Source of the DNA: a virus
Virus record (IMG/VR): IMGVR_UViG_3300029398_000003
DNA length: 46,615 nt
Strand: one strand, 5' to 3'
Shown here: one piece after another, positions 7,001 through 35,660 of the stretch
Position numbering within the stretch: position 1 is the first letter of the stretch
Layout: each line of letters begins with the position of its first letter
Made by a program: the position numbers and the translations under genes
The notes under the pieces: model-generated
The model's input: the letters and a program-made list of their open reading frames with translations, nothing else
What the model was told of the DNA's origin: nothing
The model's database searches: none

Positions 7001-8149
7001 CCCTCTCTCCGGGACTTAAACAGCACTCTTCCCCAGCTTACCGATGATATGTCCGATTTTGTGGATTTCATGTCTACCTTTGCCGGGGAGATCAGTTCCT
7101 ATACTGACTCTATGGGCGGTATCACCTGGGACAGCATTGTAAGCGGCTTCCAGAAGCTCTTTGCCGGTAATCCTATCGGCGATTTCGCTGATGATGTGAA
7201 CGCCATCTACACGGACACTAAGAGCTTGAATGACGAACTGCGGCTTGCAAACCCGGAACTGCAAACCGCTGTAACCCTGCTGACACAGTATGCCGCTCTT
7301 ATGGAGCAGCTTGGTATTCTGACGCAGGAAAACGGCACGGCAAATTTGGCAACTGGTATCTTTACCAATCTGCAAGTCTGCGGTGAGCAGCTTGTGACTG
7401 GCTTCTCCACCGGCATGACGAATAAAATGCCTCTCATTCAAGCCAATGTGGAGCAGATGAAGACCACCCTTGACACCAACTTCAATACGCTGGTAGACGG
7501 GGTTGTGCAGAAGTGGCAGACCGGTTTGGACACCATGAACACGGATTTTACTACTTTCCGCACAAATACGCTTCTCGGCTTCACGGACTTCCAAACGCAG
7601 ATGACCACTGGCATGGACGATTTTACGACCACCTTCCCGAAGGGGTGGAGTTCCATGTGGAGAGGCATGAACAATACCGCTATCATCCAGTGGAACTCTA
7701 CTCTGAACGCAATGGAAAGAGGCATGAACAATGCCATCAACGCACTCAACCAAGTCATTCGCTCTATCAACGCTGTTTCTTGGATTACGGGTATCAGTCT
7801 GAGCTATTTTAGCCGGATTTCCATTGACCAAATCCAGTATATGGCTGAGGGCGGTTTTGTGGATGAAGGGCAGCTCTTCATTGCGAGAGAGGCCGGAGCC
7901 GAGATGGTGGGTGCCATGGGACGGCGTACCGCTGTTGCCAACAATGACCAGATCGTTGAAGGTATTTCCGCTGGTGTGTCCGTTGCTAATGACGGCGTGA
8001 TCGCCGCTATCTATGCACTCATGAATATCATCGAGGACAAGGATTTGTCTGTGTCCATCGGTGATGATGTAATTGGCCGGTCTTATGACCGGTATAACCG
8101 GAGCAGAGGTGTCCGAGTGAACAGTGGTGCCTTTGCCAACGCCTACTAA
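4007..8149 (+). CDS. Tape measure protein
   Basis: 1380 aa with coiled-coil N- and C-terminal parts and a Gly/Ala/Ile-rich hydrophobic central repeat region. Position after the chaperone pair. Confidence 0.9.
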   Translation: MADNVEIQGLEFQIQENSAGAVTGLENLKKALSGLKSVTGSSVKGLDSTSKSIRELKNALSGLNSGDMSRKLTQIASGLRALEQVRGVKISNSILNQLNALNAALKNVRWTDGDKIRTLVDGLRPLSELGRANMTSFINQLGKLPALIDELEKADVDKFTRQMKELAAAMKPFADEMQKVSNGFSAFPSRIQRLIASTDRYNNSVNRATTGTKAWSNALAGIKLSTVLYASNRIGAALAGYMYQASEWEGIMYRFGRAFGEEAEENYKWINRLNSELKINVQQFMQYASIYGTMLKGFGVAQKDAAAMAMNYTELTYDIWAGYNDIYKSFEDAAVAVRSAIAGEVEPIRRAGFTIVDSQLKITAANYGIAYSTQSASEELKSYLRYLTLIDQAKAQNLIGTYAREMTTAEGLMRTLRQQLTSLSQAFGSFLLPALVKVLPYVQAFVELIGEAIAALAQLFGIDLKPVDFGVSSGASAAGDMADNLGDAAGAAKKLKQYTAGFDELNVFDPNQGAGGAGAGVSGGGYEGEFDIGKLWDESIFENINSQVDELKENLKGVLSTVTSIAAGILAWKVAKDFLAALKLLKELNSKNFAFKLDFKVLGLSMFLADLKEFERYLKDFLDNGPTFQNVAGMISSFAGMVGDALIMLGGLKVGGALKVIQGIGEIVIGISDIAENGVNAENALTVIRGLTNIAIGIGVFTGNIKLAAWSVAIQGFTTIIREIATNWDAIKQGDWSGVDKVALIIGGLEILGGLVVALDVFSKLKGISNLGNATTAMNTLSNATGTIDTTVSTQLSPKLKSLAKNLGLGVVVIAEVAAAAIIFTGAIAIMGHELEEVGKAWEPVIENGTTVATAIGIGAGILGAVGLAAYALGTGGKTIALNIGIGTAILLELGVATGLFLVEIWAVGKGLDEIGQAWQPVLDNGEEIATAIGVGTGLLVGVGTVTAALGAITIGTAGLLPAAIALGAGILAEMALACIGLVESLRAVADELNNNLAPSLRDLNSTLPQLTDDMSDFVDFMSTFAGEISSYTDSMGGITWDSIVSGFQKLFAGNPIGDFADDVNAIYTDTKSLNDELRLANPELQTAVTLLTQYAALMEQLGILTQENGTANLATGIFTNLQVCGEQLVTGFSTGMTNKMPLIQANVEQMKTTLDTNFNTLVDGVVQKWQTGLDTMNTDFTTFRTNTLLGFTDFQTQMTTGMDDFTTTFPKGWSSMWRGMNNTAIIQWNSTLNAMERGMNNAINALNQVIRSINAVSWITGISLSYFSRISIDQIQYMAEGGFVDEGQLFIAREAGAEMVGAMGRRTAVANNDQIVEGISAGVSVANDGVIAAIYALMNIIEDKDLSVSIGDDVIGRSYDRYNRSRGVRVNSGAFANAY

Positions 8150-8161
8150 GGGGGTAAGGAT

Positions 8162-8545
8162 ATGGCAGCATTTATCAAGATCAATGGTCGTGAATATCCT
8201 TGCCCCCGCAGAGGGCTTAACCTCATGACCGCTACCATCGTGGACTCCGCCAGAAACGCAAATGCTGTGGTGGTGGGTCAGGTGGTAGGCCGTGAACAGC
8301 AAAAAATCGACAATCTGGAATGGGCTTATCTGACTGCGGAACAGTGGTCGAGCCTGTTGCAAGAATTTAGAAATTTCTATGTGATGGTCACTTACCCGGA
8401 TATGGTGAACAACACATGGACTACCCGGAAGATGTACCCCGGTGACAGAACGGCAGAGCCATTCCATCTTGACCCGGAAACACAGCTTCCCATTGATTAC
8501 ATTAACTGCAAAGTTAATCTCATTGACTGCGGAGAGCCGTTGTAA
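8162..8545 (+). CDS. Small tail component (distal-tail-protein position)
   Basis: 127 aa directly after the tape measure gene. Function inferred from synteny only. Confidence 0.35.
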   Translation: MAAFIKINGREYPCPRRGLNLMTATIVDSARNANAVVVGQVVGREQQKIDNLEWAYLTAEQWSSLLQEFRNFYVMVTYPDMVNNTWTTRKMYPGDRTAEPFHLDPETQLPIDYINCKVNLIDCGEPL

Positions 8546-8557
8546 AGGAGGGCCGAT

Positions 8558-10807
8558 ATGAAATCTGTAAGTAACGCTTACAAGTCGAGTATGCGTGGCC
8601 TCCTTCGCAACCGCTCCTATGTCCGTATTACCTTCGGAAATGTGGACACAACAGCCGCAACAGACGGTGAGTGGGTAAGCAATGGGGAGCTGCCTTTTTC
8701 TGAATTTGAAACGGTAGATTACCCTTATCAGTATGGGAGTCCCTATGCCGTTTTGGAATTAAATAGGTGGGCATTAGATGGTAAAGCTCTCATTCTTCCC
8801 GCCAGTGGAACGGTGCAGGACGGTTTTGTGTCCAGCCTCATGAGTGACGCTGAGGGAGCGTTCAGCACTCCGGCAGTTATTACCCGACAGTTCTCTGCTC
8901 CCCACACCTTCCCCGGTTTGACGCTGACTTTTGATACCCGGTATCAGGAATGGCCCTTACAGATCACCGCAAGGTTTTATCTGAGCAATGCCCTGGTTGA
9001 TACCCAAGTAGTACCTGTGACCGGCGTAGAGGCCGTGGTAAACACGAGAGCGGCCCAGGTAGACAAGGTGACGATCACCTTCGACATGGCTCTTCCATAT
9101 CGGAGGCCCAGGCTGGAAGAGGTTCTATACGGCCTGAACAAGCAATTTGTGAACAAGGATATTATTTCCACTCAGCAAAAGCATGATGTTGACCCTCTGA
9201 GCCGCAGACTGCCAACTGAAACGATGGAGTTCACCATCATTGACTACGAACACAATTATGACCCCGATAATCCGTCTGGCATCTACGCTTATGTGGATAA
9301 GAACTCTCCCATTGAAATCCAATTCGGCTATGAGTTGCCGGACGGCTCTGTGGAGTGGATTAAATCTGACAGGTATGTGCTGAACGGCAAGCCCACTACC
9401 AAGGATAACCAGACAACCTTTACCGGAACCGGCCTGATTGGAAGTCTGACGAAAACCTTCTACAAAAGCAAACTTGGTTCTAAAAGCCTGTTCGCCATGG
9501 CAGAAGAAGTTCTGTTGGACGCTGATTTGACCCTGACGGAACAGGGAACGCACCCGTGGGAGATTGACGAGAGCTTGAAGCAGATGTTCACTACGGCGGC
9601 TCTCCCTATCGACACGCACATGAACTGCTTGCAGTTAATCGCTCATGCGGCCCGTTGCCGCCTGTTTACGGACGATGACAACATCATCCATATCAAACCC
9701 TTTGGTGTGACCGTGACGGGTATTTACAGCGGCCAGTGGGCCGACAACGGCCATCTCTGGTACAGCGAGTGGGGAACGGTGGATAAGGGCAATACCAGCG
9801 AAAACACTTATGCCGTATTTGAGTTGAACCGCTGGACGCTGGACGGCGGCAATCAGGTGATTATCCCTGATGATGACCCCAATGGGAGAGGATATATCAG
9901 CGAAGTCATGACCAATGCGGAAGGGACATTTACAATGGCCCCGGTCTTTACCAAAACCTTTGATGTGTCGCATGACCTTCCTGTGGTCGCTATCCGCTTT
10001 GATACGCCTATGGACGAATATCCCACCTCTATTCAGGTGAAGTATTACAAGGACACTATTCTGCTGGACACACAGACGGTTCCGGTCAATTCAGTGGAGG
10101 TGTTTGTGTCTTCCTCCTTGGCGATTGACTGTACCAAAATTGAGGTGTCTTTTCTGAGCGGACTCCCTTATCGGAGAATGAGGGTTAGTAAGGTTTACTA
10201 CCGGGAAACTGACTTCACTTTGGATTTTTCTTCTATCGCAGAGAATAGTCAGGCGATCTCCAAAATTGACGAGTTAAGAGCTGTCACCGTGGCTCGGTAC
10301 TCCTACGCTGCCAGTGATAGTACCACCAATCTCTACGAGGAAACGACCACCGAAACTGAGCTTCATGTTGAGTTCTCTGGTCTTGCACAAGATATTCAGA
10401 TCAATGTATCTGGCGGAACGCTGGTATCTTCCAACATTTACGCCAGAGCTGCGGATTTGGTGTTATCCTCCGGCACTAAAACCGTAACCATTACCGGACG
10501 GACTTTGCAGGAGAACTCGGTGGTCGTTTCCTACCCCGTAGCTCTCACCGGAGAGGTAGACAAGGAGGAAAATCCCTTAATCACCAATGACAGTATGTGC
10601 CTTGCTCTGGCAAACCATGTAAAGAATTATCTACAAATGCGAAACACCTATGATGCAGATTATCGTGGAAACCCGGAGATGGAGGTAGGCGACATTATTG
10701 GTCTGCAAACCCGATACACCAATGAAATGGACGCTCTGATCTTGGTGGATGAAATCTCCTTTAACGGCTCTCTGAGCGGAAAGATGAAGGTGAAAGGCTT
10801 GATATGA
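8558..10807 (+). CDS. Tail tip / baseplate structural protein with two tandem ~130-aa paralogous modules
   Basis: 749 aa. Two internal copies of a YAV(L/F)ELNRW(A/T)LDG ... LPYRR(P/M)R module at about 8744-9133 and 9809-10205. Confidence 0.55.
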   Translation: MKSVSNAYKSSMRGLLRNRSYVRITFGNVDTTAATDGEWVSNGELPFSEFETVDYPYQYGSPYAVLELNRWALDGKALILPASGTVQDGFVSSLMSDAEGAFSTPAVITRQFSAPHTFPGLTLTFDTRYQEWPLQITARFYLSNALVDTQVVPVTGVEAVVNTRAAQVDKVTITFDMALPYRRPRLEEVLYGLNKQFVNKDIISTQQKHDVDPLSRRLPTETMEFTIIDYEHNYDPDNPSGIYAYVDKNSPIEIQFGYELPDGSVEWIKSDRYVLNGKPTTKDNQTTFTGTGLIGSLTKTFYKSKLGSKSLFAMAEEVLLDADLTLTEQGTHPWEIDESLKQMFTTAALPIDTHMNCLQLIAHAARCRLFTDDDNIIHIKPFGVTVTGIYSGQWADNGHLWYSEWGTVDKGNTSENTYAVFELNRWTLDGGNQVIIPDDDPNGRGYISEVMTNAEGTFTMAPVFTKTFDVSHDLPVVAIRFDTPMDEYPTSIQVKYYKDTILLDTQTVPVNSVEVFVSSSLAIDCTKIEVSFLSGLPYRRMRVSKVYYRETDFTLDFSSIAENSQAISKIDELRAVTVARYSYAASDSTTNLYEETTTETELHVEFSGLAQDIQINVSGGTLVSSNIYARAADLVLSSGTKTVTITGRTLQENSVVVSYPVALTGEVDKEENPLITNDSMCLALANHVKNYLQMRNTYDADYRGNPEMEVGDIIGLQTRYTNEMDALILVDEISFNGSLSGKMKVKGLI

Positions 10808-11292
10808 GTATTATCAATGAGCTTGTCTACAACCGCACACAGGCCGATGTAGACCGGGTTTATACCCTAAAGAACAAAATCCTCACGGGAGGGCTTGCCG
10901 CCCTCACCGCTGAGGAAAAAGCTGAATATCTGGCCGGAATGAAAGGTGCCTATAACTACACGGACTTTAACCGGCTCGGAGAGGCAATCACCTATCTGGT
11001 AGAGCAAATGAAAAAGCTGGACATTCATGATAGCTCCATTGTCCCGAAGGTAGATTGGGCTATGGGAGATACCCCAACCCAGAGTCAGGTAAGAAATCTC
11101 CTGAGCTGCCTGACAAAATTGAGGGCAAAGCTCTCTTTACCGGACAATGCTCCGTCTGTGCCGAACTCTCTGGACAAGTTGACCTATCAAACGGCAAATG
11201 ACATGGAGCTTCTGCTTTGGATGATTGACCAGCGAATTACACAGACAACCGCAGCGTTCCGCTATTCCGGGACGATATATTGTGGACAATAA
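10804..11292 (+). CDS. Hypothetical tail-module protein
   Basis: 162 aa, overlap-coupled to the upstream tail gene. Confidence 0.5.
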   Translation: MSIINELVYNRTQADVDRVYTLKNKILTGGLAALTAEEKAEYLAGMKGAYNYTDFNRLGEAITYLVEQMKKLDIHDSSIVPKVDWAMGDTPTQSQVRNLLSCLTKLRAKLSLPDNAPSVPNSLDKLTYQTANDMELLLWMIDQRITQTTAAFRYSGTIYCGQ

Positions 11293-11307: not shown

Positions 11308-12456
11308 ATGAAAGACACCAGCATCAAGGGCAATGGAAAGTCCAGCATTATCAAAGCCCCTTCTGATATGCCCGAAACCTTTGAAGCATGGCGGGAACAG
11401 CTTCTCGCCGGAGAAGGCTACCTTGATGTGCGGTTGAATACCGATACAACCGGGGAAAACGCCGGGTGCAATGAAATCGGCACCGCTCTGAATAAAGCCA
11501 ATCTGCTGAATGATACCACGAAAGCGGCCTTGGAACTGACCCAGACAGACCCTACGGTAAATGACGCTCTGTATGCCCTAAGTCAGAAGGGTTCTCCCGC
11601 TGAGGTTCATGTGATCGCAGACAACGGAACCCAGGTCACAATGAGTAAGGGGAGTAAAGTCCTAACCGCTCAGGTGTCCAATGGTGAAGCGGTTCTCTAC
11701 CCTGCCGAGTTGGGCGATTGGAGTATTCAGTACATCTTTGGCGGCTCTCAGAAAACTCGGACTTGGACTCTGGAAGTCATTGGTATCGTCTATGTCTATC
11801 CCTTCGAGATCGGAGCTACCCTGAACGATACCGATTGGGAAGATATTGAGATTTGTGGTCGCCTGGGTATGGCGGAAAAATTCTTCAAGGTGGGAGATAC
11901 AAAGACTGTAAACATCGGCGGAACTAACTACGAGGTACAGATTATTGATTTCAACCATGACGATAAAGTATCTGGTGGTAAGGCCCCCATGACATTCCAG
12001 CTTGTGGACTGCCTCAATCAGACGGCACAGATGAATAGCAGTAACACCAATACCGGAGGCTGGAACGGTTCTGCCATGAGAACCAGAATGGCTACCTATA
12101 AAAGCCAACTTCCGGCGGCTCTTCGGAATGTCATCAAGACTGTCAAGAAGAAATCCGGCACCGGTGGCGGAAGTTCCAGCGGTACGCAGACCACCAATGA
12201 TGACCTGTTTCTGCTGTCCGAAATTGAGATTTTTGGCACGACCACTTACTCGGTAGCCGGTGAGGGTACACAGTACGCTTGGTACAAGGCCGGGAACACC
12301 AGAATTAAGAAAGTCAACGGTTCTGCGAACAACTGGTGGGAGCGTTCGCCTTTTAGCGGCAACGCCACCGATTTCTGCTATGTGAACAGTTCGGGGAACG
12401 CCAACTTTAACTTCGCCAACACCTCTTATGGCGTGTCCTTCGGCTTCTGCGTTTAA
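11308..12456 (+). CDS. DGR target protein 1, a putative receptor-binding tail fibre protein with C-terminal variable region VR1
   Basis: 382 aa, last gene of the tail module. The C-terminus NNWWERSPFSGNATDFCYVNSSGNANFNFANTSYGVSFGFCV is encoded by VR1, which matches the TR apart from adenine positions. Confidence 0.85.
   Translation: MKDTSIKGNGKSSIIKAPSDMPETFEAWREQLLAGEGYLDVRLNTDTTGENAGCNEIGTALNKANLLNDTTKAALELTQTDPTVNDALYALSQKGSPAEVHVIADNGTQVTMSKGSKVLTAQVSNGEAVLYPAELGDWSIQYIFGGSQKTRTWTLEVIGIVYVYPFEIGATLNDTDWEDIEICGRLGMAEKFFKVGDTKTVNIGGTNYEVQIIDFNHDDKVSGGKAPMTFQLVDCLNQTAQMNSSNTNTGGWNGSAMRTRMATYKSQLPAALRNVIKTVKKKSGTGGGSSSGTQTTNDDLFLLSEIEIFGTTTYSVAGEGTQYAWYKAGNTRIKKVNGSANNWWERSPFSGNATDFCYVNSSGNANFNFANTSYGVSFGFCV
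12320..12450 (+). repeat. DGR variable repeat VR1
   Basis: 131-bp ungapped alignment to TR 12975-13105 with 13 mismatches, all at TR adenines (for example AAT to TTT, AAC to TTC, ACC to GCC). Confidence 0.9.
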
Positions 12457-12474: not shown

Positions 12475-12492
12475 CCGCCCCGTAAGGGGCGG
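12475..12492 (+). promoter_or_regulatory. GC-rich hairpin (7-bp stem, GTAA loop) 24 nt downstream of VR1. Candidate DGR target-recognition structure.
   Basis: ccgcccc gtaa ggggcgg with no following U-tract. Same sequence class and same spacing as the hairpin after VR2. Confidence 0.6.
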
Positions 12493-12507: not shown

Positions 12508-12936
12508 ATGTCAGTCATCAAATCTAAACGGGGAGAAAGCCCAATGCAGTTCATCGAAACTGCAAGAAAACTGGAAGCTCACACTTTTTCCGTTGTCACC
12601 AAGGCTCCTAAGCGGTACGGCCCCTATCTCCTTTACAAGCTCATGGCTCTTGCCACCACGGTTCATGACGAGGTTCGGGCGGCAAACAATATCTATCCGA
12701 GAAACCAGCATGAAGCGCAAATGCGCCGGGACTGCCTGACAAGAGCCAATATTGCCCTCCAAAATCTCAGTCCAAAGCTGACCTTGCTCTATGACGCTAT
12801 TCTTCAAAACCCGGAAAAATGCCCGTGGATTGACCACGCCATGCAGGAGTTCGGAGAGTACATCAAAGAGGAAGCGAAGCTGATCGCAAAAGTGAAGAAA
12901 GCTGACAGCGAGAGGTATAAAGACCTCCCGGTGTAA
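12508..12936 (+). CDS. avd: DGR accessory variability determinant (Avd-like, basic helical protein)
   Basis: 142 aa between the target gene and the TR, the canonical mtd-avd-TR-RT order. Basic and helical, with a KAPKRYG segment resembling IPRKHG of BPP-1 Avd (recalled from memory). Confidence 0.6.
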   Translation: MSVIKSKRGESPMQFIETARKLEAHTFSVVTKAPKRYGPYLLYKLMALATTVHDEVRAANNIYPRNQHEAQMRRDCLTRANIALQNLSPKLTLLYDAILQNPEKCPWIDHAMQEFGEYIKEEAKLIAKVKKADSERYKDLPV

Positions 12937-12974
12937 GTTTTCAGATATGGGTCAAGTCCTGTCATCCGTTTATT

Positions 12975-13105
12975 GTTCTGCGAACAACTGGTGGGAGCGT
13001 TCGCCTAATAGCGGCAACACCAACAATTTCTGCAATGTGAACAGTTCGGGAAACGCCAACAATAACAACGCCAACAACTCTAATGGCGTGTCCTTCGGCT
13101 TCTGC
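12975..13105 (+). repeat. DGR template repeat (TR)
   Basis: Adenine-rich AAC/AAT-codon segment homologous to VR1 (131 bp) and VR2 (116 bp). Homology ends at ttctgc, after which the TR reads aacttcgta and both VRs read gtttaatcc. Confidence 0.9.
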
Positions 13106-13370
13106 AACTTCGTATGGGTCAGTCGTAGTAACCCCGTTGGGTGAAATCAGTACCCTTTGCAGAAGGAGGGCTTGTACCCTGCCGAAAGGCTAAAACTTCC
13201 GGGTATATCGTTTGAAATATACCCTTTCCGGCAACGGGAACTTCCGATGTAGTCAGCCGGACGCTGCTTGCATGGTGAGCGATTGTACGGTAGCTCATTT
13301 CATGGCTGGTACTACTATGCAGTTAGAACCCGTACCCCACAATAATACTGTACGGAGGGAACCCCTTTTT

Positions 13371-14588
13371 ATGACAAGTGAGGAACGAAGGGAAATCCGT
13401 TATCAACGCAGGAAAACAAAGAGGGACGAGGCCCGTCTAAAGCGAAGTATGGCCTGTGGAGATTTTGATGAAGTCTTTTCGTTCCGGCATCTATATCTCT
13501 CTGCGAAAAAGTGCTGTAAAGGAGTGTACTGGAAAAGTTCTACACAAAGATATATCAGCAATCTTATCCCAAATATCTCTGAAACCCTATTATCCCTGAG
13601 AAATGGCACCTTTATTCACCGAGGCTTCCATGAGTTCTACATCATGGAGCGTGGCAAGAAACGGCATATTCGCTCTGTTCATATCTCGGAGCGGACAGTC
13701 CAGAAATGCCTATGTGATTACTGCATTGTGCCAATCTACTCCGCCTCTTTCATCTACGACAACTCCGCCAGTTTGAAGCACCGAGGAATGGACTTTGCCT
13801 TACGGCGGATGGTCTATCACTTGGAACGGCATTTTCGCAAGCATGGTTTGGCTGGTGGCATCTTGATCTATGACTTCAAGAGCTTCTTCGATGACGCTCC
13901 CCATGAACCTCTGCTGGCGGAGGCGGAAAGACGGCTCCACGATGACCGTATTCGGGCTTTACACAACAGCTTCATTGCGGATTTTGGCCCGGTAGGGCTT
14001 GGCCTGGGCAGTCAGATCAGTCAGACAAATGCTCTGTTGCTGCCGAGTCCGCTTGACCATTATTTCAAAGAAGTCCTGGGGATTGAGGGATATGCCCGGT
14101 ATATGGATGACGGCTACGCCATTCATGAAGACCTGGATTATCTAAAGGGCGAATGTATGTTGGGATTGGAAGAGGTCACTCGGCACCTTGGACTCCGGCT
14201 CAACTGGAAGAAAACCAGGGTTGTTCCTCTGGTGGACTTCTACCGATGGTTGAAAACCAAGTTCATCGTCACACCGCAGGGGAAGGTGATCTTGAAGATG
14301 AACCCGGCTTCTACCAAAATCATCCGGCGCAAACTCCGTTCTTTTTACCGAAAATGGCAGATGGATGAAATGGCCCTGGCTGATATTCGCAATTCAGTGG
14401 ACAGCTATAACGGCCACATGATGCGAGGCAATAGTTATAAGGTAAAAGAGCGAACCAATCAGTATTTCAAATCCATGTTTGGTTTCTATCCGAACAAGAA
14501 AGGTTGGGAAAGAAATGTATCGAATGTTCAAAGGAGAAATTGTACTGGCAACAGTTACGAACCCTGTTTGGGTCAAAAAGCAGGATAA
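13371..14588 (+). CDS. DGR reverse transcriptase
   Basis: YMDD catalytic box (YARYMDDGYAI) and an LGLGSQISQ motif, the DGR-type (I/L)GxxxSQ. ATG at 13371 is preceded by ggaggga. The ORF track starts at TTG 13212, but that upstream part is more likely TR-RT spacer RNA. Confidence 0.85.
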   Translation: MTSEERREIRYQRRKTKRDEARLKRSMACGDFDEVFSFRHLYLSAKKCCKGVYWKSSTQRYISNLIPNISETLLSLRNGTFIHRGFHEFYIMERGKKRHIRSVHISERTVQKCLCDYCIVPIYSASFIYDNSASLKHRGMDFALRRMVYHLERHFRKHGLAGGILIYDFKSFFDDAPHEPLLAEAERRLHDDRIRALHNSFIADFGPVGLGLGSQISQTNALLLPSPLDHYFKEVLGIEGYARYMDDGYAIHEDLDYLKGECMLGLEEVTRHLGLRLNWKKTRVVPLVDFYRWLKTKFIVTPQGKVILKMNPASTKIIRRKLRSFYRKWQMDEMALADIRNSVDSYNGHMMRGNSYKVKERTNQYFKSMFGFYPNKKGWERNVSNVQRRNCTGNSYEPCLGQKAG

Positions 14589-15604: not shown

Positions 15605-15678
15605 CTATAAAGTCCCCTTAGAGAGCGTCCCTATAAGAGAGTTTATGGTAAAAATCGAAAATGGGTCACTAAACTCAC
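15605..15678 (+). promoter_or_regulatory. Conserved leader element, copy A, upstream of the holin gene. Homologous to 36814-36886.
   Basis: 29-bp perfect core aaaaatcgaaaatgggtcactaaactcac (15650-15678 equals 36858-36886), preceded by paired (t/a)(t/a)agagag boxes in both copies. Confidence 0.7.
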
Positions 15679-15700
15679 CAAAATAGAAAGGAGAGTTCTC

Positions 15701-17232: not shown

Positions 17233-17270
17233 AGACACCCTCTACCGTTATGGTAAAGGGTGTCTTTTTG
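17233..17270. terminator. Hairpin agacaccct-N15-agggtgtct followed by tttttgttt. Convergent terminator; alternative reading is an attP-type dyad.
   Basis: 9-bp perfect inverted repeat with a T-tract. Overlaps the last codons of the integrase gene. Confidence 0.5.
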
Positions 17271-18903
17271 TTTGAACGAATATCTTTCCCCATACAATGT
17301 AAGGTTCGGATATGCGCTCAATGGTGGACTTTGACCCCTCAAATCCGAACCCCTTCTCGCTGGAAGGGTTTATGCGGAAAGTCTTATTCTTGCAGGAGGT
17401 CAAGTTATATGCTGTCGTAATGCGGAAACCGTCAGGTTCGTCCCATACGGTAACGGAGTTCACCATGAGGTCAATGATAATGCGCCGGTATCTCTCGTCT
17501 TCGATGCGGCCTCCCTTAAACTCGGTCAGCCAGTAGACAATCTGGCTCCGCTCAATTTTACAGACATATTTCTCTTCTTCGGCTAAAAGTCGGAGAAGAT
17601 TTTTCTTTTCTTTCTCCAACTCTACAAGTCGGTTCATAAGAGCGTCAGAGGCAATACCCTTTTCAATGGCATTTGTAATATTGGCAATACCGCTCTCTGT
17701 TTCCTTCATCCGTTCTGTAAGTTCAGGAATACGGGTATTTTCTCGCAAGTCCTGTTCAGTTTGAGAGATCGCCATGTCTGCCAGCTCTTGAATGGTATCA
17801 TCGGTCAGTAACTCCATAGCGTCTTGCGCTACGATATACTCTATCCATTCTTTCTTCAAGGGCTTCTTTTCACAAGCGTGTTTCCGCTTCCTGGTATAAC
17901 AGGTGTAGTAATTGTGGACAGCTCCGGTCTTGCTGGTGCCACTTTCCCCGTTCATAGAGCCTCCACAATGGCCGCAGAAGAGCTTTCCGGCCAAGAGGTA
18001 ATCCACCTTGGCTTTGCCCCTTGCCGGGGCTTCTGCGTTCTTAGAGAGCCTACGGCCCACCGTTTCAAACAGTTCCTTGTCAATGATGGCCGGAACGCCT
18101 CCTTCCATCTCAATATCTTTGTAGGTATAGACCCCGATATATCGTTTATTACGGAACATGGACTTGAAACTATTCCGGTTAAACTCTACTCCCTTGGCTG
18201 TGCGGTAGCCTTTTGCGTTAAACATACGGCAAATATCGGCCACGGTTTCCCCATTGGCATAAAGTTCAAAAGCCTCTTGGACGATATGAGCGGTAGCCGG
18301 ATTGATAACCAGTTTATGATCTTCAATTTTATAGCCGAGAGGAACATGACCTCCTATACTATGGCATTTCAAGGCAGACTCCCTCATACCTCTGGTGATC
18401 TTCTGCGAGAGGTCGGCAGAGTAAAATTCCGCCATACCCTCCAACACAGCTTCAAGAATAATACCCTCCGGTTTCTCAGAAATGTTCTCAGTAGCAGAGA
18501 TGACCTTTACGCCGTTCTTTCTGAGGCGGAATTTGAAAAGTGCGCTATCTGTTCGGTTCCGAGCAAAGCGGTCAAGTTTCCAAACAACCACATACTCCCA
18601 TGGCTTTTTCTCGCTGTCCCGTATCATCTCTTGGAAGTGAACCCGTTTCTCCACATCTTTCCGGGCGGTGGTGGCCCGGTCTACATAGATAGCGGTAATA
18701 CGGTAGCCATTAAGTTTGCAGAAGGTTCGGCAATCACGGAGCTGCCCTTCAATGGATTGTTCCCGTTGCCGCTCGGAGCTGAACCGAAGGTACAACGATA
18801 CATCGGTGTCCCCTTCAAAAAGTGTGGAGGGGTCTTGTCTGAACTGGTCTATTTCCTCTTCGGTCAACATGGAGAGGTCAATGGGGAATTTTGTGATTTT
18901 CAT
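17248..18903 (-). CDS. int: Large serine recombinase (phage integrase)
   Basis: Resolvase-type N-terminal domain (LRFSSERQ, DRFARN), recombinase domain and a Cys-rich zinc ribbon (CGHCGG...YYTCYTRKRKHAC), followed by a coiled-coil C-terminus. Start at 18903 (MKITKF) preferred because of ggaga 8 nt upstream; the ORF track start is 18918. Confidence 0.85.
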   Translation of the reverse strand: MKITKFPIDLSMLTEEEIDQFRQDPSTLFEGDTDVSLYLRFSSERQREQSIEGQLRDCRTFCKLNGYRITAIYVDRATTARKDVEKRVHFQEMIRDSEKKPWEYVVVWKLDRFARNRTDSALFKFRLRKNGVKVISATENISEKPEGIILEAVLEGMAEFYSADLSQKITRGMRESALKCHSIGGHVPLGYKIEDHKLVINPATAHIVQEAFELYANGETVADICRMFNAKGYRTAKGVEFNRNSFKSMFRNKRYIGVYTYKDIEMEGGVPAIIDKELFETVGRRLSKNAEAPARGKAKVDYLLAGKLFCGHCGGSMNGESGTSKTGAVHNYYTCYTRKRKHACEKKPLKKEWIEYIVAQDAMELLTDDTIQELADMAISQTEQDLRENTRIPELTERMKETESGIANITNAIEKGIASDALMNRLVELEKEKKNLLRLLAEEEKYVCKIERSQIVYWLTEFKGGRIEDERYRRIIIDLMVNSVTVWDEPDGFRITTAYNLTSCKNKTFRINPSSEKGFGFEGSKSTIERISEPYIVWGKIFVQTKRHPLP

Positions 18904-18936
18904 AGCGTCTTTCTCCATTCAGACAGGTCGATGACC

Positions 18937-19320: not shown

Positions 19321-19345
19321 TGTGCGGGCACCTCCTGAAAATAAA

Positions 19346-19419
19346 TCAACAGAAATTGTTGATACCCTATTGACAACAACGATAATCGTTGATATACTCA
19401 TATCAACAACGAAAGTTAT
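19346..19419. promoter_or_regulatory. Lysogeny switch: three 17-bp operators of form TCAAC-N7-GTTGA (19346-19362, 19376-19392, 19403-19419)
   Basis: tcaacagaaattgttga, acaacgataatcgttga and tcaacaacgaaagttat, with centres 30 and 27 bp apart, lying between divergent genes. Confidence 0.65.
19370..19398 (+). promoter_or_regulatory. Rightward early promoter (TTGACA-17-TATACT) whose spacer is exactly operator 2
   Basis: ttgaca acaacgataatcgttga tatact. Shares the extended -35 context ctattgacaac with the promoters at 37748 and 40456. Confidence 0.7.
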
Positions 19420-19597: not shown

Positions 19598-19900
19598 ATG
19601 ATGGTGGGAAACCCTACACCCCGTCCGTATTGGACACCCGATGTACCTGTTATCCGGCTGACGGAGCAGGAGCGCACGAGCTACCGTGAGCAGATCAGGG
19701 AACTTGTGGCTGGTGCAAGTCTGACCTTTACTTGGCTTATCCGGCAGCTCTCTGATGAAGGACTGATGACTGATAAGTACGAAATGTCCGCAACGCTCTC
19801 TGGTGTTCGCACCGGGGACAAAGCAGACGAAATCCTTCGCCGCTCCCTTGATATTCTACATCGGTATCAGATGCGGATGGGGTCATGCGGGGAGCCGTGA
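19598..19900 (+). CDS. First early-operon protein (Cro/antirepressor position), function unknown
   Basis: ATG 19598 is preceded by aaaggagg. 100 aa. Call based on position only. Confidence 0.4.
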   Translation: MMVGNPTPRPYWTPDVPVIRLTEQERTSYREQIRELVAGASLTFTWLIRQLSDEGLMTDKYEMSATLSGVRTGDKADEILRRSLDILHRYQMRMGSCGEP

Positions 19901-20067
19901 GTGCCTTTGTACCGGAAGTTCAAGCCCAGGCTAAAGCCGCAAGCCTGTTGTTGCTTCAAATTGTGCGGGAATATTTCACTGACCCCGTACACAGGGCCGA
20001 GTTTGAGGACTGGTACAGAAAGAAGACCGGAGAAGAGTATGTGTGGAAGAAGGTTACAGATGAATGA
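19885..20067 (+). CDS. Hypothetical early protein
   Basis: 60-aa ORF overlapping its neighbours at both ends. Confidence 0.35.
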   Translation: MRGAVSAFVPEVQAQAKAASLLLLQIVREYFTDPVHRAEFEDWYRKKTGEEYVWKKVTDE

Positions 20068-20300
20068 AACGGATATTTGGAACCCTGGCATTTCTCTCCT
20101 TTTTCTGGCTCCTTGGAACGGTTGCCGCTGTTGAGCAAGACATGATGGCTCTTGGCACCGGAACGCTTCACATGGCCTTTGCCCTATTCCTCTTCTATGT
20201 CTTTTGTAAACTGGCCGGAGCGTTTTATCCTACGCAGAAAAGGAAAAGCCGCAGACGGGAGTGCAGTCCCATCCACGGCAAGCGTAAAAGCTCAATCTGA
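20064..20300 (+). CDS. Small two-TM membrane protein with a basic tail
   Basis: FGTLAFLSFFWLLGTVAAV and MAFALFLFYVFCKLAGAF helices followed by KRKSRRRE. Confidence 0.45.
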   Translation: MKRIFGTLAFLSFFWLLGTVAAVEQDMMALGTGTLHMAFALFLFYVFCKLAGAFYPTQKRKSRRRECSPIHGKRKSSI

Positions 20301-20340
20301 TTATACCAGACATTTTGAAAATTGAAAAGGAGATTTTCAC

Positions 20341-21156
20341 ATGGATAAGAATGTATTTTCTCAGCTTGCGGCTGAGTTTGACCGCATGGAGCGGACGATC
20401 ACCTACCAAAAGGAAGTCATTTCCACCATGCAGAAGACCCCTACTTGCTCCTGTTGCAAGGTTCCCGCAGATGGCCGGATTTACACCCTTCCCGAACTCC
20501 CGAAGATGAAGCTGGACGATTGCTCTTGGGCTGAAATCGCTATGTATGCTCAGTCTGGCATGGCTGATAAGGTGTTTGCTCAGGGCGATACCAAAAAATT
20601 CACCCTGTCTAATGGCACAGTTATGTCGGCCCGTATCATCGACTTCAATCACGATACGGATAAAGAGAATAATATCCTGCCCATCACCTTTGAAACGGTA
20701 GAAACCCTCAATGATGACTTTCAGATGAACCCTGAGTACACCAACAAGGGCGGCTGGCAAAATTCTCAGCTTCGCAAGGTTCTGAACAATTCCGTCATCG
20801 AAATGCTTCCTGCTGATCTTCGGAAGGTCATCAAGCCCTGTTTGAAGAAGACGAGTTTGGGCGGAAATAGTGAGAAGTACGGCCTGACTTCTGACCCTCT
20901 GTTTGTTCTGTCCGAGCAGGAAATTTTTGGTCGAAAGATTTACTCCCATGGTGGCGAGGGGCATTGGTATGGCTGGTATCGCCAGGAGAATACCGAGTAC
21001 GGAAAGTGCAAGCAGAACGGTGAGCGGGATTGGCGGTGGGAGCGTTCGCCTCTTAGCGGCGGCACCAACAATTTCTGCAATGTGGACGGTTCGGGCAGCG
21101 CCTACAGTAACTCCGCCAACTACTCTTATGGCGTGTCCTTCGGCTTCTGCGTTTAA
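20341..21156 (+). CDS. DGR target protein 2, a paralogue of the target-1 C-terminal half, carrying VR2
   Basis: 271 aa. Shares IIDFNHD, GGW.(G/N)S, LP..LR.VIK, LSE.EIFG and WERSP...GVSFGFCV with target 1. No signal peptide seen. Located in the early operon. Confidence 0.8.
   Translation: MDKNVFSQLAAEFDRMERTITYQKEVISTMQKTPTCSCCKVPADGRIYTLPELPKMKLDDCSWAEIAMYAQSGMADKVFAQGDTKKFTLSNGTVMSARIIDFNHDTDKENNILPITFETVETLNDDFQMNPEYTNKGGWQNSQLRKVLNNSVIEMLPADLRKVIKPCLKKTSLGGNSEKYGLTSDPLFVLSEQEIFGRKIYSHGGEGHWYGWYRQENTEYGKCKQNGERDWRWERSPLSGGTNNFCNVDGSGSAYSNSANYSYGVSFGFCV
21035..21150 (+). repeat. DGR variable repeat VR2 (remote)
   Basis: 116-bp ungapped alignment to TR 12990-13105 with 14 mismatches, all at TR adenines. 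The 3' flank gtttaatcc is identical to that of VR1. Confidence 0.9.
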
Positions 21157-21174
21157 TCCGTAATCCACAATAAT

Positions 21175-21194
21175 CCCGCCCCGGAAGGGGCGGG
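21175..21194 (+). promoter_or_regulatory. GC-rich hairpin (8-bp stem, GGAA loop) 24 nt downstream of VR2
   Basis: cccgcccc ggaa ggggcggg, at the same distance from the VR end as the VR1 hairpin. Confidence 0.6.
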
Positions 21195-21206: not shown

Positions 21207-21617
21207 ATGAACTATATTGTGAAAATTTCATGGTATAGCGGAGGCTGCGAGTTACTTGCTGATGAATTTTTCCCAACCACGATGGAGAAAACCAGGAAGC
21301 TCTTCAAGCTCTTGGTTGCTGACCCTGATTGGGATGACGAAAAAGTAAGAGAGCTTTTGGATTATTTCAAGGAGCGCAAAGTCCTGGAAGTCAAAATGGC
21401 GGAAGAGGCTCGAAGCATGGCTCAGGGACTTATGCGGGAGGCAGAGGTCATTAAGGCAAGATGTTCTCGCAAATCCGAAGAATACCAGGAATATATGCGG
21501 TTCCGTGATAAGGCTTTAGACTTGAGCCGAAGTTCTACTACTCACTTGAACGCCGCTCGTTATTGCGTTAAGGCATCCGCACTCCTGAGAGATATGTGGG
21601 GAGGGAATGTGGTTTGA
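21207..21617 (+). CDS. Hypothetical protein
   Basis: 136-aa ORF with RBS aaaggagag. Confidence 0.5.
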   Translation: MNYIVKISWYSGGCELLADEFFPTTMEKTRKLFKLLVADPDWDDEKVRELLDYFKERKVLEVKMAEEARSMAQGLMREAEVIKARCSRKSEEYQEYMRFRDKALDLSRSSTTHLNAARYCVKASALLRDMWGGNVV

Positions 21618-26644: not shown

Positions 26645-27635
26645 TTGAAGATAGGAATGTGGTCTGACTCTATCAATTTTCCTAACCTTCCTCTTATGAA
26701 ATTATCTTCCTACCACAAAGAACAGGGGGATAGCGTTGAATTGATAAAAGAAGGTGAACATTATGACAAAGTTTATTTAAGCAAAGTGTTCAATTTACCT
26801 CTTTTGAACAAAATCCCGCAATCTCCGCCTATATTCCATGCAGACGATGTAGTACGGGGGGGGGACAGGATATGCGATAAAAGTGGAAAATGGCAAAGAG
26901 GTATTTCACAGTGAATTACACGAGAATTTGCCAAGCGAAATTGAACACCGCTATCCCGATTATTCTTTGTTCCCGCAATATCAAAATACGGCCTATGGGT
27001 TTTTAACTCGTGGCTGTTGCAATAACTGTTCATTCTGTATTGTCTGTCCCAAGGAAGGAAACCAGAGTGTTCAGGTAGCAGATTTGAATGAATTTTGGAA
27101 TGGGCAACGGGAAATCAAACTTCTCGACCCCAATTTATTGGCTTGCCGAAATCGAGAAACGCTCCTGAAAGAACTGATTGAAAGTGGTGCCCGTGTTGAT
27201 TTTACCCAAGGAATTGATGCTCGATTTATCACCAGCGACATTGCCGAACTTATCAATCAGGTCAAAATCAAAACAATTCACTTCGCCTTTGACTTTATGA
27301 AAAACGAAAAGGCGATCATTCGAGGATTGGAGTGTTTCAAGAAATACTACTCTGGTTCAGACAGAAATATACGGTGCTATGTTTTGACAAACTACGATAC
27401 TTCACACGAAGAAGACTGGTATCGGGTACGCTCTCTGATTGAACTTGGGTATCAGCCGTATGTGATGATTTATCAAAAAGGCACTCACAACCGTTTTCTG
27501 ACAGACCTTGCCAGATGGAGCAATTCACTTTTTCTAAACAGAGCGGTTTCGTTTGAGGATTATGTTCCACGCAAAGACGGAAAATCTTGTCGGGAACTCT
27601 ATCCAGAAATTCTAAACAAAAAGGAGATTGTTGTT
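26645..27635 (+). CDS. Radical SAM protein, reading frame broken at a G9 tract (26856-26864). The 3' end is undefined because the frame stays open into the ERF gene.
   Basis: CX3CX2C cluster (GCCNNCSFC). TTG 26645 after agaggtga gives MKIGMWSDSINFPNLPLMKLSSYHK. The two ORFs (26606-26914 and 26883-) fuse if one G is removed. Confidence 0.6.
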
Positions 27636-28397
27636 ATGCCAGCGAAAACCGAGAAAACCCCCGCACCCGCCGTTGATTACAGCGGCATGAATATCTGCCG
27701 GAAGTTGCAGATTGCCCGATTAAAGTTCCTGCAAGCCGGTGTGAAGAAAACCGGCAAAAACATTCACTTGGAGTTCATGTACTTCGAGCTGAGTGACATT
27801 GTTCCTGTGGCCGAGTCCATCTTCACGGAAGTGGGGCTGTTGATGGCTCCCACCTTCGGCAAGGAGTACGCCATTGCCAAAGTTTTCAACTGTGATGATC
27901 GAGATGAAGAGCCTATTACCTTTGAGGCTCCCTTCACGCAGATCGCTCCCATCATTTCCAACAGCGGCAAGGTTGTGACGAACGAAATGCAAGCCCTGGG
28001 CAGTTCTATCACCTATATGCGCCGGTATCTGTGGCAGCTTGTTCTTGACATTATCGAGGCTGACAGTATCGACAATACCTCCGGTGCCGATGAAGATACT
28101 CAGACACCTCCCTCTCCCACTAAGACCGCAAAAAAGGCTCCTGTGACCGCTGAGAAGCGTCAGGAAATCAAGTCTGAGCTGACTTCCGCCCCGGAGGGTG
28201 CCGCCAGTGAGGAACAGGTTGCCACGCTGAAAGCGGAACTGAAAAAGCTCATGGAGCTGGACGCAGAGCAGGAGAGCTTTGTGCAGAATGTAGCCGTAAA
28301 GACTGAGGGCTTCACCAAGATCACCGCTGATGTGTGCGACCAGCTCATTACCGGTGTACGGGATATGCTCTCGGCGTATGACACTCAGGAGGGTTAA
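27636..28397 (+). CDS. ERF-family single-strand annealing protein
   Basis: Internal ATG preceded by aaaggag. QALGSSITYMRRYLW is the hallmark ERF motif. Followed by a YqaJ-type exonuclease gene. Confidence 0.7.
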   Translation: MPAKTEKTPAPAVDYSGMNICRKLQIARLKFLQAGVKKTGKNIHLEFMYFELSDIVPVAESIFTEVGLLMAPTFGKEYAIAKVFNCDDRDEEPITFEAPFTQIAPIISNSGKVVTNEMQALGSSITYMRRYLWQLVLDIIEADSIDNTSGADEDTQTPPSPTKTAKKAPVTAEKRQEIKSELTSAPEGAASEEQVATLKAELKKLMELDAEQESFVQNVAVKTEGFTKITADVCDQLITGVRDMLSAYDTQEG

Positions 28398-34164: not shown

Positions 34165-35659
34165 AATTATGACCACGGAAGAGCAGGAACTTTTTCAGCT
34201 TTCCAATGGCCGGTACATCATGGACAAAGACCTGTCCCGAAAGATGTTTTACATCAAAGAGGCCAAGCCGGAACGGAGCCACCAGATCAGCGGCACCGGC
34301 TATTCCTGGGACGAGTCTGGTATGGCAGAGCTGTTTTCCGAGTGCTACCAGAATGATACCCGCTTTTGCCCGGAAGCAAAGTGCTGGTACACCTATTCTA
34401 AGGGAGCATGGAGGAAGGATATTGGCTCCCTGTTGGTGGCTGAGAAAATCAAGGAATTTTGCCGCCTTATGGCTCTCTACTGCGGAGAGATTGACAACGA
34501 AGATCGCCGCAGGGAGTATATGAAGTTTATCGTAAAAATGGGCGACCGGCGTTTCCGTGACCGGCTCATGAAGGACGCTGCCAGCGTCATGCCGATTACG
34601 GCAGAAGAGTTTGACGCAAATCCCTTTCTCATTAACTGCCTGAACGGAACCTACGACATGGAGAAGATGGAGTTCCGTGAGCATGATTGGCGGGACTTCC
34701 TGACGATGCAGACCAATTTCGACTATACCTTGCAGGACTCCCGCTGTGAGCGGTGGGAGAGGTTTATTACAGAGGTCACTTGCAATGACCCGGACAAGGC
34801 TGAATATCTGCAAAAGGCCCTGGGCTATTCAATGCTCGGTATGGCGAATGAAGAGTGTATGTTCATCCTCCACGGCAAGACCACTCGCAACGGAAAATCT
34901 ACCATGCTGAGTGCCATTCATCATCTCCTGGGCGACTACGCTTCTGTGTCCCCCGTGTCCATTATCTGCAAGTCTGACCGGTCAAAGAACGCAGAGGCAG
35001 CGAACCCCATGCTGGCTTCCCTTAAAGGTAAGCGGTTTGTGACCATGGCGGAGAGCAACCAGTATGGCAAGCTGGACGAAGAAACTATCAAGCAACTCAC
35101 CGGTGGAGAAGAGATCAAGGCCCGGAACCTCTACGAAGCTACCACGACTTTCCTCCCCCAATTCACCCTCTGGCTGTCCTGTAACGACCTTCCCTCTGTC
35201 AATGACAAGAGCCTGTTTGCCTCTGACCGTGTGCGGGTGGTGGAGTTCAACCGTCACTTCACCGAAGACGAGCAGGACAAAAACCTCAAAAGTGAATTTC
35301 AGACCCAGGAGGCCATGCGTGGCATTTTCACTTGGCTCTTGGAGGGCTACTTCAAATATAAGCGGTTCGGCCTGAAAATGTCCCCGGCCATGCGTCAGGT
35401 AGTCAAGCAGTATGAAAAAGACAATGACTTGGTATTGCAGTTCTTAGAAGAAAGGTGTGAAAAGGCCGGAGGAGCCTACACCAGAGCTAAGACGCTCTAT
35501 GACGCTTACAAGATTTGGTGTAAGTCCAACGGCTATTTTGTGTGTAGCGCAAAGCGGTTTAATGCCGACATGGAAGCTCACCCGGAATGGCATGGAGGCA
35601 AGACCGTCTACTCTGGCTATCCCACCTACCGGGACATTCGTATGAAGGGAAGCGTGTAA
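34154..35659 (+). CDS. P4/D5-type primase-helicase C-terminal region (SF3 helicase)
   Basis: Walker A GKTTRNGKST, Walker B-like FVTMAE and the D5_N-like region upstream. Confidence 0.75.
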   Translation: MADEIMTTEEQELFQLSNGRYIMDKDLSRKMFYIKEAKPERSHQISGTGYSWDESGMAELFSECYQNDTRFCPEAKCWYTYSKGAWRKDIGSLLVAEKIKEFCRLMALYCGEIDNEDRRREYMKFIVKMGDRRFRDRLMKDAASVMPITAEEFDANPFLINCLNGTYDMEKMEFREHDWRDFLTMQTNFDYTLQDSRCERWERFITEVTCNDPDKAEYLQKALGYSMLGMANEECMFILHGKTTRNGKSTMLSAIHHLLGDYASVSPVSIICKSDRSKNAEAANPMLASLKGKRFVTMAESNQYGKLDEETIKQLTGGEEIKARNLYEATTTFLPQFTLWLSCNDLPSVNDKSLFASDRVRVVEFNRHFTEDEQDKNLKSEFQTQEAMRGIFTWLLEGYFKYKRFGLKMSPAMRQVVKQYEKDNDLVLQFLEERCEKAGGAYTRAKTLYDAYKIWCKSNGYFVCSAKRFNADMEAHPEWHGGKTVYSGYPTYRDIRMKGSV

Positions 35660-35660
35660 T

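Follow-up and report, generated by a model that had tools for sequence, protein, structure and literature searches.

A second, remote DGR target in the early operon of an Oscillospiraceae temperate phage

The DGRs of phages are usually explained as devices for host-receptor switching. The viral DNA considered here (the window: the whole stretch of 46,615 nucleotides of IMG/VR record IMGVR_UViG_3300029398_000003) raises the question of whether such an element may also diversify a gene that is placed among early genes, and what the product of that gene may then be for. A reading made from the sequence alone (the sequence-only reading) had placed a second target, VR2, at the 3' end of such a gene, and had suggested for its product a role other than receptor switching.

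Bases 1-99 of the window are an exact repeat of 46517-46615, which makes the window a complete circular assembly, 46,516 bp in length. Scans with PHROG and Pfam give an overall map of the temperate siphovirus type, with the following features:

42461, terminase
44224, portal
71, major head protein, followed by the adaptor, the major tail protein and the tape measure (4007-8149)
8162-11292, distal tail proteins
11308-12456, plus strand, target 1 gene (382 aa, Pfam DUF6273), the last of the tail module, after the tape-measure and distal tail genes
12320-12450, plus strand, VR1, from the repeat search and alignment to TR
12508-12936, plus strand, Avd-like accessory gene (142 aa; phrog_30516, 8e-15)
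12975-13105, plus strand, template repeat TR; the full span templates VR1, and 12990-13105 templates VR2
13212-14588, plus strand, DGR reverse transcriptase RT (Pfam RVT_1; phrog_1423 at 3.6e-63)
15911, endolysin
17248-18918, minus strand, serine recombinase
18937-19320/19485, minus strand, CI-like repressor (repressor domains in Pfam and PHROG)
19346-19398, plus strand, candidate early rightward promoter (promoter 19370-19398), TTGACA-17-TATACT with TG, 11/12 matches in the scan
19598-19900 and 19885-20067, plus strand, first ORFs of the rightward operon
20064-20300, plus strand, two-helix membrane protein (78 aa, hydropathy 1.93), directly upstream of target 2
20341-21156, plus strand, target 2 gene, an ORF for a 271-aa DUF6273 protein with a GGAG ribosome-binding site upstream
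21035-21150, plus strand, VR2, templated by TR 12990-13105
21207-21617, plus strand, ORF after target 2, rightward operon
21596, Hjc-type resolvase, rightward operon
22000, helicase, rightward operon
24740, DNA polymerase, rightward operon
26883, Erf-like protein, rightward operon
28400, RecE-like exonuclease, rightward operon
34154, primase, rightward operon

The relatives of the window are prophages of Oscillospiraceae/Dysosmobacter, and megablast of the region against the INPHARED phages found no close relatives. The RT translation displays YMDD and LGSQISQ motifs; its ORF as listed begins at TTG, and the true start is probably the ATG near 13368. The Avd-like gene matches the PHROG 'Avd protein of DGR' weakly (9e-4), and its position between target 1 and TR fits the assignment. 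TR is rich in adenine (37 of 131 bases). An RT and an Avd-like gene adjoining TR in the same genome are among the marks by which a DGR target is recognised.

The repeat search returned three in-register copies, at 12320-12450 (VR1), 12975-13105 (TR) and 21020-21150 (the VR2 side). The sequence-only reading described VR2 as a 116-bp match to TR with 14 mismatches, all at TR adenines, and the re-alignment of TR 12990-13105 with 21035-21150 reproduced this exactly; given 33 A among the 116 bases of the TR segment, the hypergeometric probability that all 14 fall at A is 2.0e-9. Non-adenine mismatches, which would have spoken against that reading, numbered zero in VR2 of the window. Upstream of 21035 the TR match stops abruptly, and 11 of 15 positions differ, mostly at bases other than A. 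VR1 differs from TR at 13 of 131 bp, all 13 of them at A. When VR1 is compared with VR2, 17 of 100 core positions differ, and the substituted sites of the two are only partly the same, in keeping with the earlier statement that the two substitution patterns are unlike. The TR adenines are distributed over codon positions 1, 2 and 3 of the target 2 frame as 17:15:1, which is an AAY-codon design. The start of VR2 lies 8715 bp from that of VR1 and 8045 bp from TR, so that the description of VR2 as a second, non-adjacent target of the same TR, about 8.7 kb from VR1, is upheld; the sequence-only description proved accurate in all the details open to checking.

The 3' side of VR2 carries the following elements, of which the hairpins come from a DNA fold:

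21130-21159, plus strand, VR2 3' end: invariant GC-rich GGCGTGTCCTTCGGCTTCTGC (IMH-like), then GTTTAATCC, with the stop codon inside
21175-21194, GC hairpin after VR2, CCCGCCCC-GGAA-GGGGCGGG, with an 8-bp stem and a 4-nt loop of the GRNA type
12475-12492, GC hairpin after VR1, CCGCCCC-GTAA-GGGGCGG

VR1 and VR2 have a common end base after TGC and continue into GTTTAATCC, whereas TR runs on into AACTTCGTA. This VR 3' boundary is identical in all relatives. The VR2 hairpin begins 24 nt past the end of VR2, both VR hairpins lie 24-25 nt past their VR, and the DNA fold found no such GC hairpin after TR in the window. Across the clade, a GC hairpin with a 4-nt GNNA loop follows every VR1 and every VR2 and never follows TR, and it is kept although the spacer that precedes it diverges among relatives.

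The DGR of Bordetella phage BPP-1 comprises Mtd, Avd, TR and Brt. The target-site features set experimentally in BPP-1, and also in other phage DGRs, are GC stems of 7-10 bp with 4-nt loops at 4-34 bp from VR (PMC3240598), and the VR2 3' end and its hairpin have, by their sequence, the form of such a site. In both systems the transfer from TR to VR is adenine-specific, and the VR is C-terminal, has a GC-rich 3' boundary and is followed by a GC hairpin whose loop is 4 nt long (PMC3240598). In contrast to BPP-1, where the one adjacent target is the tip of the tail fibre, the second target here is 8 kb away in another module. No sequence or fold similarity between target 2 and Mtd was detected, and target 2 does not have the Mtd-type combination of a tail-module gene and an N-terminal virion-attachment region.

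Target 2 has orthologues at twenty loci of IMG/VR and at two genome loci, as well as on several metagenome contigs. Four close relatives (L001, L002, L004 and L005; 93-95% protein identity) differ from the window at 18-21 positions within VR2, 18-20 of which are TR-A sites, and at 15-19 positions, mostly synonymous, over the roughly 700 bp outside VR2. In these relatives dN is 0.21-0.24 and dS 0-0.07 inside VR2, and the non-VR part has a dN/dS of 0.04-0.11; the full range of the non-VR dN/dS recorded for target 2 is 0.04-0.22, and target 2 outside VR2 is under purifying selection. A fifth close relative (L003), in which target 2 apparently stands right before Avd and RT and carries non-A changes, was set aside as a contig chimera, most likely induced by the repeats, because its VR looks like one from a different lineage and the sequence that follows is the VR1 flank.

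When the window protein was compared with 11 others from its 90% identity cluster (12 sequences in all), 18 variable columns with up to 9 residues each fell within residues 238-263, and the other 231 residues contained 7 variable columns with two or three residues each. The hypervariation is confined to adenine-templated codons, as is characteristic of DGR targets. At 90% identity, the target 2 cluster holds 2565 distinct sequences and that of target 1 holds 2544, which puts the natural variability of VR2 level with that of VR1. A lack of VR2 variation, which would have counted against the sequence-only reading, is not what public metagenomes show; VR2 is actively diversified in them.

Six other genomes (L009, L011, L012 and L015 from IMG/VR, together with L025 and L028) encode target 2 proteins 47-78% identical to that of the window, L025 and L028 being the lowest (47-53%). 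In the 100-nt core, their VR2 has 0-1 non-A mismatches against the cognate TR. The TRs of these genomes have diverged at non-A positions and each VR2 has followed its local TR. The exception is L020, with 6 non-A mismatches between TR and VR2, which means that VR2 homing is not continuous in every lineage or that the L020 contig is recombinant.

The placement of target 2 was examined by gene order and by scans for expression signals. Target 2 is the fourth ORF of the rightward operon counted from the candidate promoter, which is overlapped by operator-like palindromes of the TCAACA/TGTTGA type and faces the CI-like repressor gene. No plus-strand terminator-like or promoter-like site was found by the scan between the early promoter and 20341, and the search for a dedicated plus-strand promoter directly before target 2 likewise returned none; because of this, early co-transcription of target 2 is the simplest reading. 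We infer from gene order and consensus scans that target 2 is expressed early, within the rightward operon. The sequence-only reading had put the gene outside the virion module, in a repressor-controlled early operon among replication genes, which both lines of evidence bear out. Its further suggestion of expression 'early, or from the prophage' agrees in its first half with the early-operon placement and finds no support in its second, since no plus-strand promoter-like site lies directly before the gene and the gene is on the strand opposite the repressor. A conserved antisense promoter is predicted to overlap the ribosome-binding site of target 2. As to the argument from placement, virion proteins also go without signal peptides, and gene position is no proof of timing.

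The same arrangement is found throughout the clade. The order serine recombinase (minus strand), repressor (minus strand), small ORFs, target 2, Hjc and helicase is kept in all loci examined, and extends to lineages at 42-53% identity and to integrated prophages, the repressor itself being mosaic. The clade-wide layout in these Oscillospiraceae temperate phages is tail-module target 1, Avd, TR and RT, then target 2 behind the integrase/repressor. In every relative, among them lineages with 42-47% identity, the terminase gene is some 21 kb downstream of target 2, which itself follows the immunity region. In the integrated L021 and L027, roughly 3 kb separate target 2 from the prophage's integrase (attL) end. 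The 78-aa membrane-protein neighbour is kept in most relatives and absent in the L027 and L028 lineages. In this clade of Oscillospiraceae temperate siphoviruses, target 2 belongs to the conserved core genes of the early (replication) operon.

Both target proteins match Pfam DUF6273 above the curated cut-off, target 2 with 49 bits against 23.5. The alignment of target 2 covers target 1 residues 159-382 with 46% identity (E 5e-54) and takes in the motifs quoted in the sequence-only reading, which had correctly seen target 2 as a paralogue of target 1's C-terminal half. Target 2 has no counterpart of the N-terminal 158 residues of target 1. Its own N-terminal 56 residues have no paralogue elsewhere in the genome, and among 1.84 billion representative proteins they matched only the same family and low-complexity giants. 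The protein consists of a predicted N-terminal helix (residues 3-30), a variable Cys-containing linker and DUF6273 from about 57 to 271. The maximum 19-residue Kyte-Doolittle hydropathy is 0.43, which leaves no signal-peptide-like or membrane segment, in agreement with the earlier remark that no signal peptide was seen.

Two AlphaFold2 models, from alignments of 58 and 112 sequences, reached pLDDT values of 72.6 and 78.4. They predict a confident alpha/beta core at about 57-232 and a low-confidence Cys-cluster linker, and the VR segment is below 50 in both. Foldseek of the model against PDB gave no match (best E ~0.5), and an HMM search of PDB sequences with target 2 gave nothing. Against BFVD, Foldseek returned gut-phage DUF6273 proteins, one of them named 'tail-collar fiber protein'. 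DUF6273 has been described as C-type-lectin-like (PMC10743442; bioRxiv 10.1101/2024.10.15.618418), a fold that neither model recovered. DUF6273 is the one known domain in target 2, Pfam detecting no Ig-like or other attachment domain; neither NCBIfam nor PADLOC matched target 2 or the small genes beside it. When homologues were searched for again, using the family profile, most of the proteins recovered were the same and little diversity was gained.

Fused forms of target 2 occur in the assemblies. In-frame fusions of the neighbouring membrane protein with target 2 (P0074 and P0077) exist in some relatives and are a weak lead only. Frameshift fusions with the downstream Hjc gene (P0083, P0090 and P0110) were also seen, which indicates that fusion artefacts or mutants are common in these assemblies. 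An apparent DUF6273-amidase fusion (P0153), considered as a cell-wall-binding lead, was rejected as a single truncated chimeric ORF on a 4.5-kb contig.

Taken together, the best explanation is that VR2 is a real, active, trans-acting target of the single DGR, borne by an accessory DUF6273 binder of the early operon (probability about 0.8). The part of this explanation that concerns the DGR appears as secure as sequence analysis allows. By analogy with BPP-1, the TR transcript would be reverse-transcribed by an Avd/RT complex with adenine-specific misincorporation, and the cDNA would replace VR2, with the common GC-rich 3' end and the GC hairpin, some 24 nt further on, as guides. VR2 homing would proceed independently of VR1 homing, and each genome would consequently carry two unrelated repertoires. 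The diversified product would be a small, cytoplasmically synthesised, single-domain DUF6273 binder.

Several published systems bear on what such a binder may do. In Roseburia phage Shimadzu, VR2 of the DGR is in orf43 and experiments showed both VRs to be diversified (Cornuault et al., bioRxiv 10.1101/575076, ISME J 2020). In the mouse gut, only a few selected alleles of Shimadzu VR1 were left, whereas VR2 kept its high diversity, and the authors took VR2 to be less important for infection; the module placement of orf43 is not discussed in that paper (bioRxiv 10.1101/575076). The orf43 product, of 209 aa, resembles target 2: it is small, consists of a single DUF6273-like domain that is 26% identical along its full length, and carries its VR at the C-terminus. 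On re-derivation, 17 of 22 mismatches between Shimadzu TR 19609 and the orf43 3' end fall at A. As in the window phage, orf43 is the second target, the first being a tail-fibre gene beside Avd, TR and RT, and it lies about 14 kb away in the early/replication module, between methyltransferases and Erf/SSB. Target 2 agrees with the orf43 type in that it falls within about 200-280 aa, has one DUF6273 and a C-terminal VR, and is a second target among early/replication genes. The differences are that Shimadzu is a myovirus of a Lachnospiraceae host, that orf43 has neither the N-terminal helix nor the Cys linker, and that target 2 is the fourth ORF after the immunity switch, by a small membrane protein and an Hjc resolvase, whereas orf43 has other neighbours.

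A third early-module case was identified in this analysis in Dulem virus 34 (PP511788.1), at CDS 35648-36313. Its 221-aa DUF6273-like protein is 30% identical to target 2 and 33% to orf43, and the 3' end of the CDS differs from TR 21402-21530 at 16 positions, 15 of them at A, and is followed by a GC hairpin with a GAAA loop. The gene is again in an early setting, between a methyltransferase gene and a rep gene, with VR1 in a tail-module Ig-like protein. Unlike the window phage, Dulem virus 34 is a myovirus, from lemur faeces, and its protein has no N-terminal helix. The PP511788.1 record annotates neither the DGR nor the VRs.

Dual DUF6273 targets are also described in Toutatisvirus, Lelie, CP11 and the tentaclins, from phages of Faecalibacterium and other gut phages, and the role of the second targets is called unclear (bioRxiv 10.1101/2024.10.15.618418; PMC11792537; PMC10743442). 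These phages likewise use one DGR for two targets, one of them non-adjacent (17.5 kb from TR in FP_Toutatis) and in the core genome. Their second targets, however, are Ig-domain Hoc-like or tentaclin proteins, or lie upstream within or near the structural region, whereas target 2 has no Ig-like domain and its VR is C-terminal. A tentaclin begins with C-lec/DUF6273, has its VR close to the 5' end, and continues with between one and four Ig-like domains and a conserved C-terminal Ig anchor (PMC10743442); target 2 has DUF6273 alone, with VR at the extreme C-terminus. Non-adjacent targets are common within prophage DGRs (PMC5758913), and a Hoc-like DUF6273 DGR target of Mushuvirus has been proposed to be expressed from the prophage and secreted (bioRxiv 10.64898/2026.05.08.723808), so that the idea of action beyond receptor switching is already in the literature. 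The novelty implied by the sequence-only reading was accordingly overstated, as non-adjacent prophage targets, DUF6273 pairs and a VR2 in a replication module are all published.

A role for target 2 other than receptor switching is plausible on sequence grounds. It is favoured by the long retention of the gene in the early operon, by the recurrence of early/replication-module placement in three phage groups, by the lack in target 2 of any attachment domain and of the target 1 N-terminal region, its own N-terminus being unrelated to anything outside the family, and, by analogy, by the far weaker selection in vivo on VR2 than on VR1 alleles of Shimadzu (bioRxiv 10.1101/575076). The BFVD neighbour named as a tail-collar fibre protein counts against a non-virion role, and DUF6273 is clearly compatible with virion display because the paralogue, target 1, is in the tail module. 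On balance there is about an even chance that target 2 is an accessory ligand-binding protein, and not a tail-tip receptor binder or tail fibre, that would be made early and would act in the cell, at the membrane or after lysis. As a best guess, target 2, Shimadzu orf43 and the Dulem virus 34 protein form a recurrent class of early-module DGR targets. A more specific form of this view is that target 2 is a non-virion, hypervariable intracellular binder, present from the start of infection, that would recognise proteins of host defence or competitor phages in counter-defence or superinfection exclusion, with the Shimadzu and Dulem virus 34 proteins in the same functional class; in such detail it is tentative and on the whole unlikely. 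An intracellular binder of this kind may possibly be tethered to the inner surface of the membrane through the two-helix protein encoded beside it.

Somewhat doubtful, but to be weighed seriously, is the alternative that target 2 is a virion component, that is, a second accessory adhesin or receptor binder attached by its helix to the tail, baseplate or head, in which VR2 would broaden host or mucus binding in the manner of tentaclin, Hoc-like or Mtd-like pairs. Its paralogue is a tail-module protein, gut-phage DUF6273 proteins usually occur in tail or head-decoration contexts (PMC10743442; PMC11792537), and the diversification of target 2 matches that of VR1 in intensity. The predicted N-terminal helix of 28 residues, conserved and amphipathic, might serve for docking to the virion or for oligomerisation, possibly as a trimer. 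The constant position of the gene far upstream of the terminase and behind the immunity region argues against a virion component, as do the absence of known attachment domains, an N-terminus unrelated to other proteins of the phage, and the finding that Shimadzu VR2 alleles were not selected in infection-driven blooms (bioRxiv 10.1101/575076).

A role of target 2 in lysogenic conversion is improbable; on that view the prophage would express the protein, the bacterium would release or display it, and the DGR would diversify a lectin that benefits the host. The secreted Mushuvirus protein is a precedent for this (bioRxiv 10.64898/2026.05.08.723808), and the integrated gene is close to the attL end; but the gene is on the lytic strand downstream of an operator-bearing early promoter, with no plus-strand promoter-like site directly upstream and a conserved antisense promoter over its ribosome-binding site, and the protein has neither signal peptide nor membrane anchor. 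The idea that VR2 is inactive, left over from a duplication or from gene conversion between the 3' ends of the paralogues and untouched by the DGR, can draw on the 3' similarity that paralogy alone would produce and on the non-A differences from TR in L020 and L003, yet it is barely credible and is effectively refuted by the population data, as VR2 resembles the non-coding TR far more closely than the 46% protein-level similarity, its mismatches fall at A throughout, the pattern recurs in independent genomes with TR and VR2 co-varying, variation in populations keeps to A-templated codons and dN greatly exceeds dS, and L003 is explained by a chimeric contig.

The finding, an active VR2 on an early-operon gene, is a well-documented addition to a known but unexplained class of second DGR targets. 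The clade offers a clean case: two paralogous binding domains are diversified from a single TR and equally intensely, one at the end of the tail module and the other long retained in the early replication operon, and the same early-module placement recurs in at least two other phage groups. The question of the second target can be tested in a widespread clade of gut phages, as cultured Oscillospiraceae lysogens exist (L021 derives from an isolate genome). A large survey has itself stated the limitation that targets were sought beside the RT only (PMC8144416); if target 2 is non-structural, such surveys would systematically overlook the early-module class. Diversification by phage DGRs would, under the same condition, reach into intracellular or post-lysis conflicts.

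A dual-target diversity-generating retroelement (DGR) was also found in Dulem virus 34 (relative locus L032, PP511788.1), where it is absent from the record's annotation. Its repeats lie at the following positions:

L032 20660-20788, DGR repeat
L032 21402-21530, DGR repeat
L032 36195-36307, DGR repeat

The first variable repeat (VR1) of this virus is located within an Ig-like protein of the tail module, and the second (VR2) in a 221-aa DUF6273-like protein, the gene of which is flanked by a methyltransferase gene and a rep gene. Fifteen of the sixteen VR2 mismatches fall at adenines, and a hairpin with a GAAA loop lies downstream.

Two relatives display irregular repeats. In L003 (IMGVR_UViG_3300029406_000101), target 2, the DUF6273 protein gene, is joined directly to Avd, the template repeat (TR) and the reverse transcriptase (RT) gene at 3115-4900; the VR differs from its own TR at 11 positions other than adenines, and its downstream flank is of the VR1 type. 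The most likely explanation is a chimera formed during assembly at the ends that the VRs share; otherwise the contig may represent the circle expected from recombination between VR1 and VR2. In L020 (10683-10782), VR2 shows six non-adenine differences from its cognate TR and is similar to the VR2/TR type of another, L012-like sublineage. This suggests either that the early module was recombined between phages without later re-homing, or that the contig is chimeric.

In the window itself, the listed RT ORF begins at TTG, and its approximately 52 N-terminal residues (13212-13367) are poorly conserved. Since the PHROG match of the RT begins at residue 55, the true start is probably an ATG near 13368. 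The TR is also contained in a spurious 65-aa ORF (12947-13144). In a single 504-aa ORF at 26883-28397, residues 11-238 match a radical-SAM-domain PHROG and residues 269-499 an Erf-like annealing protein; either this is an unusual fusion, or the mechanical ORF call has joined two separate genes.

The ends of the window carry an exact terminal duplication of 99 bp (1-99 = 46517-46615); the window represents a genome of 46,516 bp assembled as a closed circle. An intergenic element (TTTATrGyAAAAATCGAAAATGGGTCACTAAACTCAC) occurs in two copies, with 93% identity over 41 nt and further similarity upstream:

15620-15682, copy preceding the lysis-region ORF at 15701
36828-36890, copy preceding the ORF at 36918

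Possibly it is a late or middle regulatory site common to the two loci. The operator/promoter region gave a weak match to the Rfam RT-6 RNA (19337-19409, minus strand; score 21.8 bits, gathering threshold 46.7, E = 0.074), which is probably due to chance.

Directly upstream of target 2 lies the gene for a 78-aa membrane protein, and in two relatives the two genes form a single in-frame ORF, to be compared with window 20064-21156:

L030 382-1476, membrane protein-target 2 fusion, 364 aa
L031 4001-5146, membrane protein-target 2 fusion, 381 aa

These fusions are created by indels in an A-run (GAAAAAGAAAAAG), the spacer having no stop codon in the fusion frame. They may be either real membrane-tethered variants or noise from frameshifts; target 2 is also fused to the downstream resolvase gene Hjc in P0083, P0090 and P0110, which shows frameshifts of this kind to be common in these assemblies.

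The same junction contains a candidate promoter and a hairpin on the opposite strand:

20238-20328, minus strand, putative small antisense RNA immediately before target 2

The candidate promoter consists of a -35 element (TTTTCA), which overlaps the ribosome-binding site of target 2, a 17-nt spacer, and an extended -10 element (TGgTATAAT, hexamer 20305-20300), which is kept in relatives as TGnTATAAT despite varying flanking bases. The 13-bp hairpin (20279-20248, -26.7 kcal/mol, z = -4.05) is followed by UUUUCCUUUU. Its pairing is preserved, with compensatory changes at four pairs, and because of its G-U pairs it is specific to the minus strand. The candidate (window 20238-20328, minus strand) had no match in Rfam. 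Such an RNA would run antisense to the membrane-protein gene at its 3' end, and could be a regulator of the type I toxin-antitoxin or oop/sar kind.
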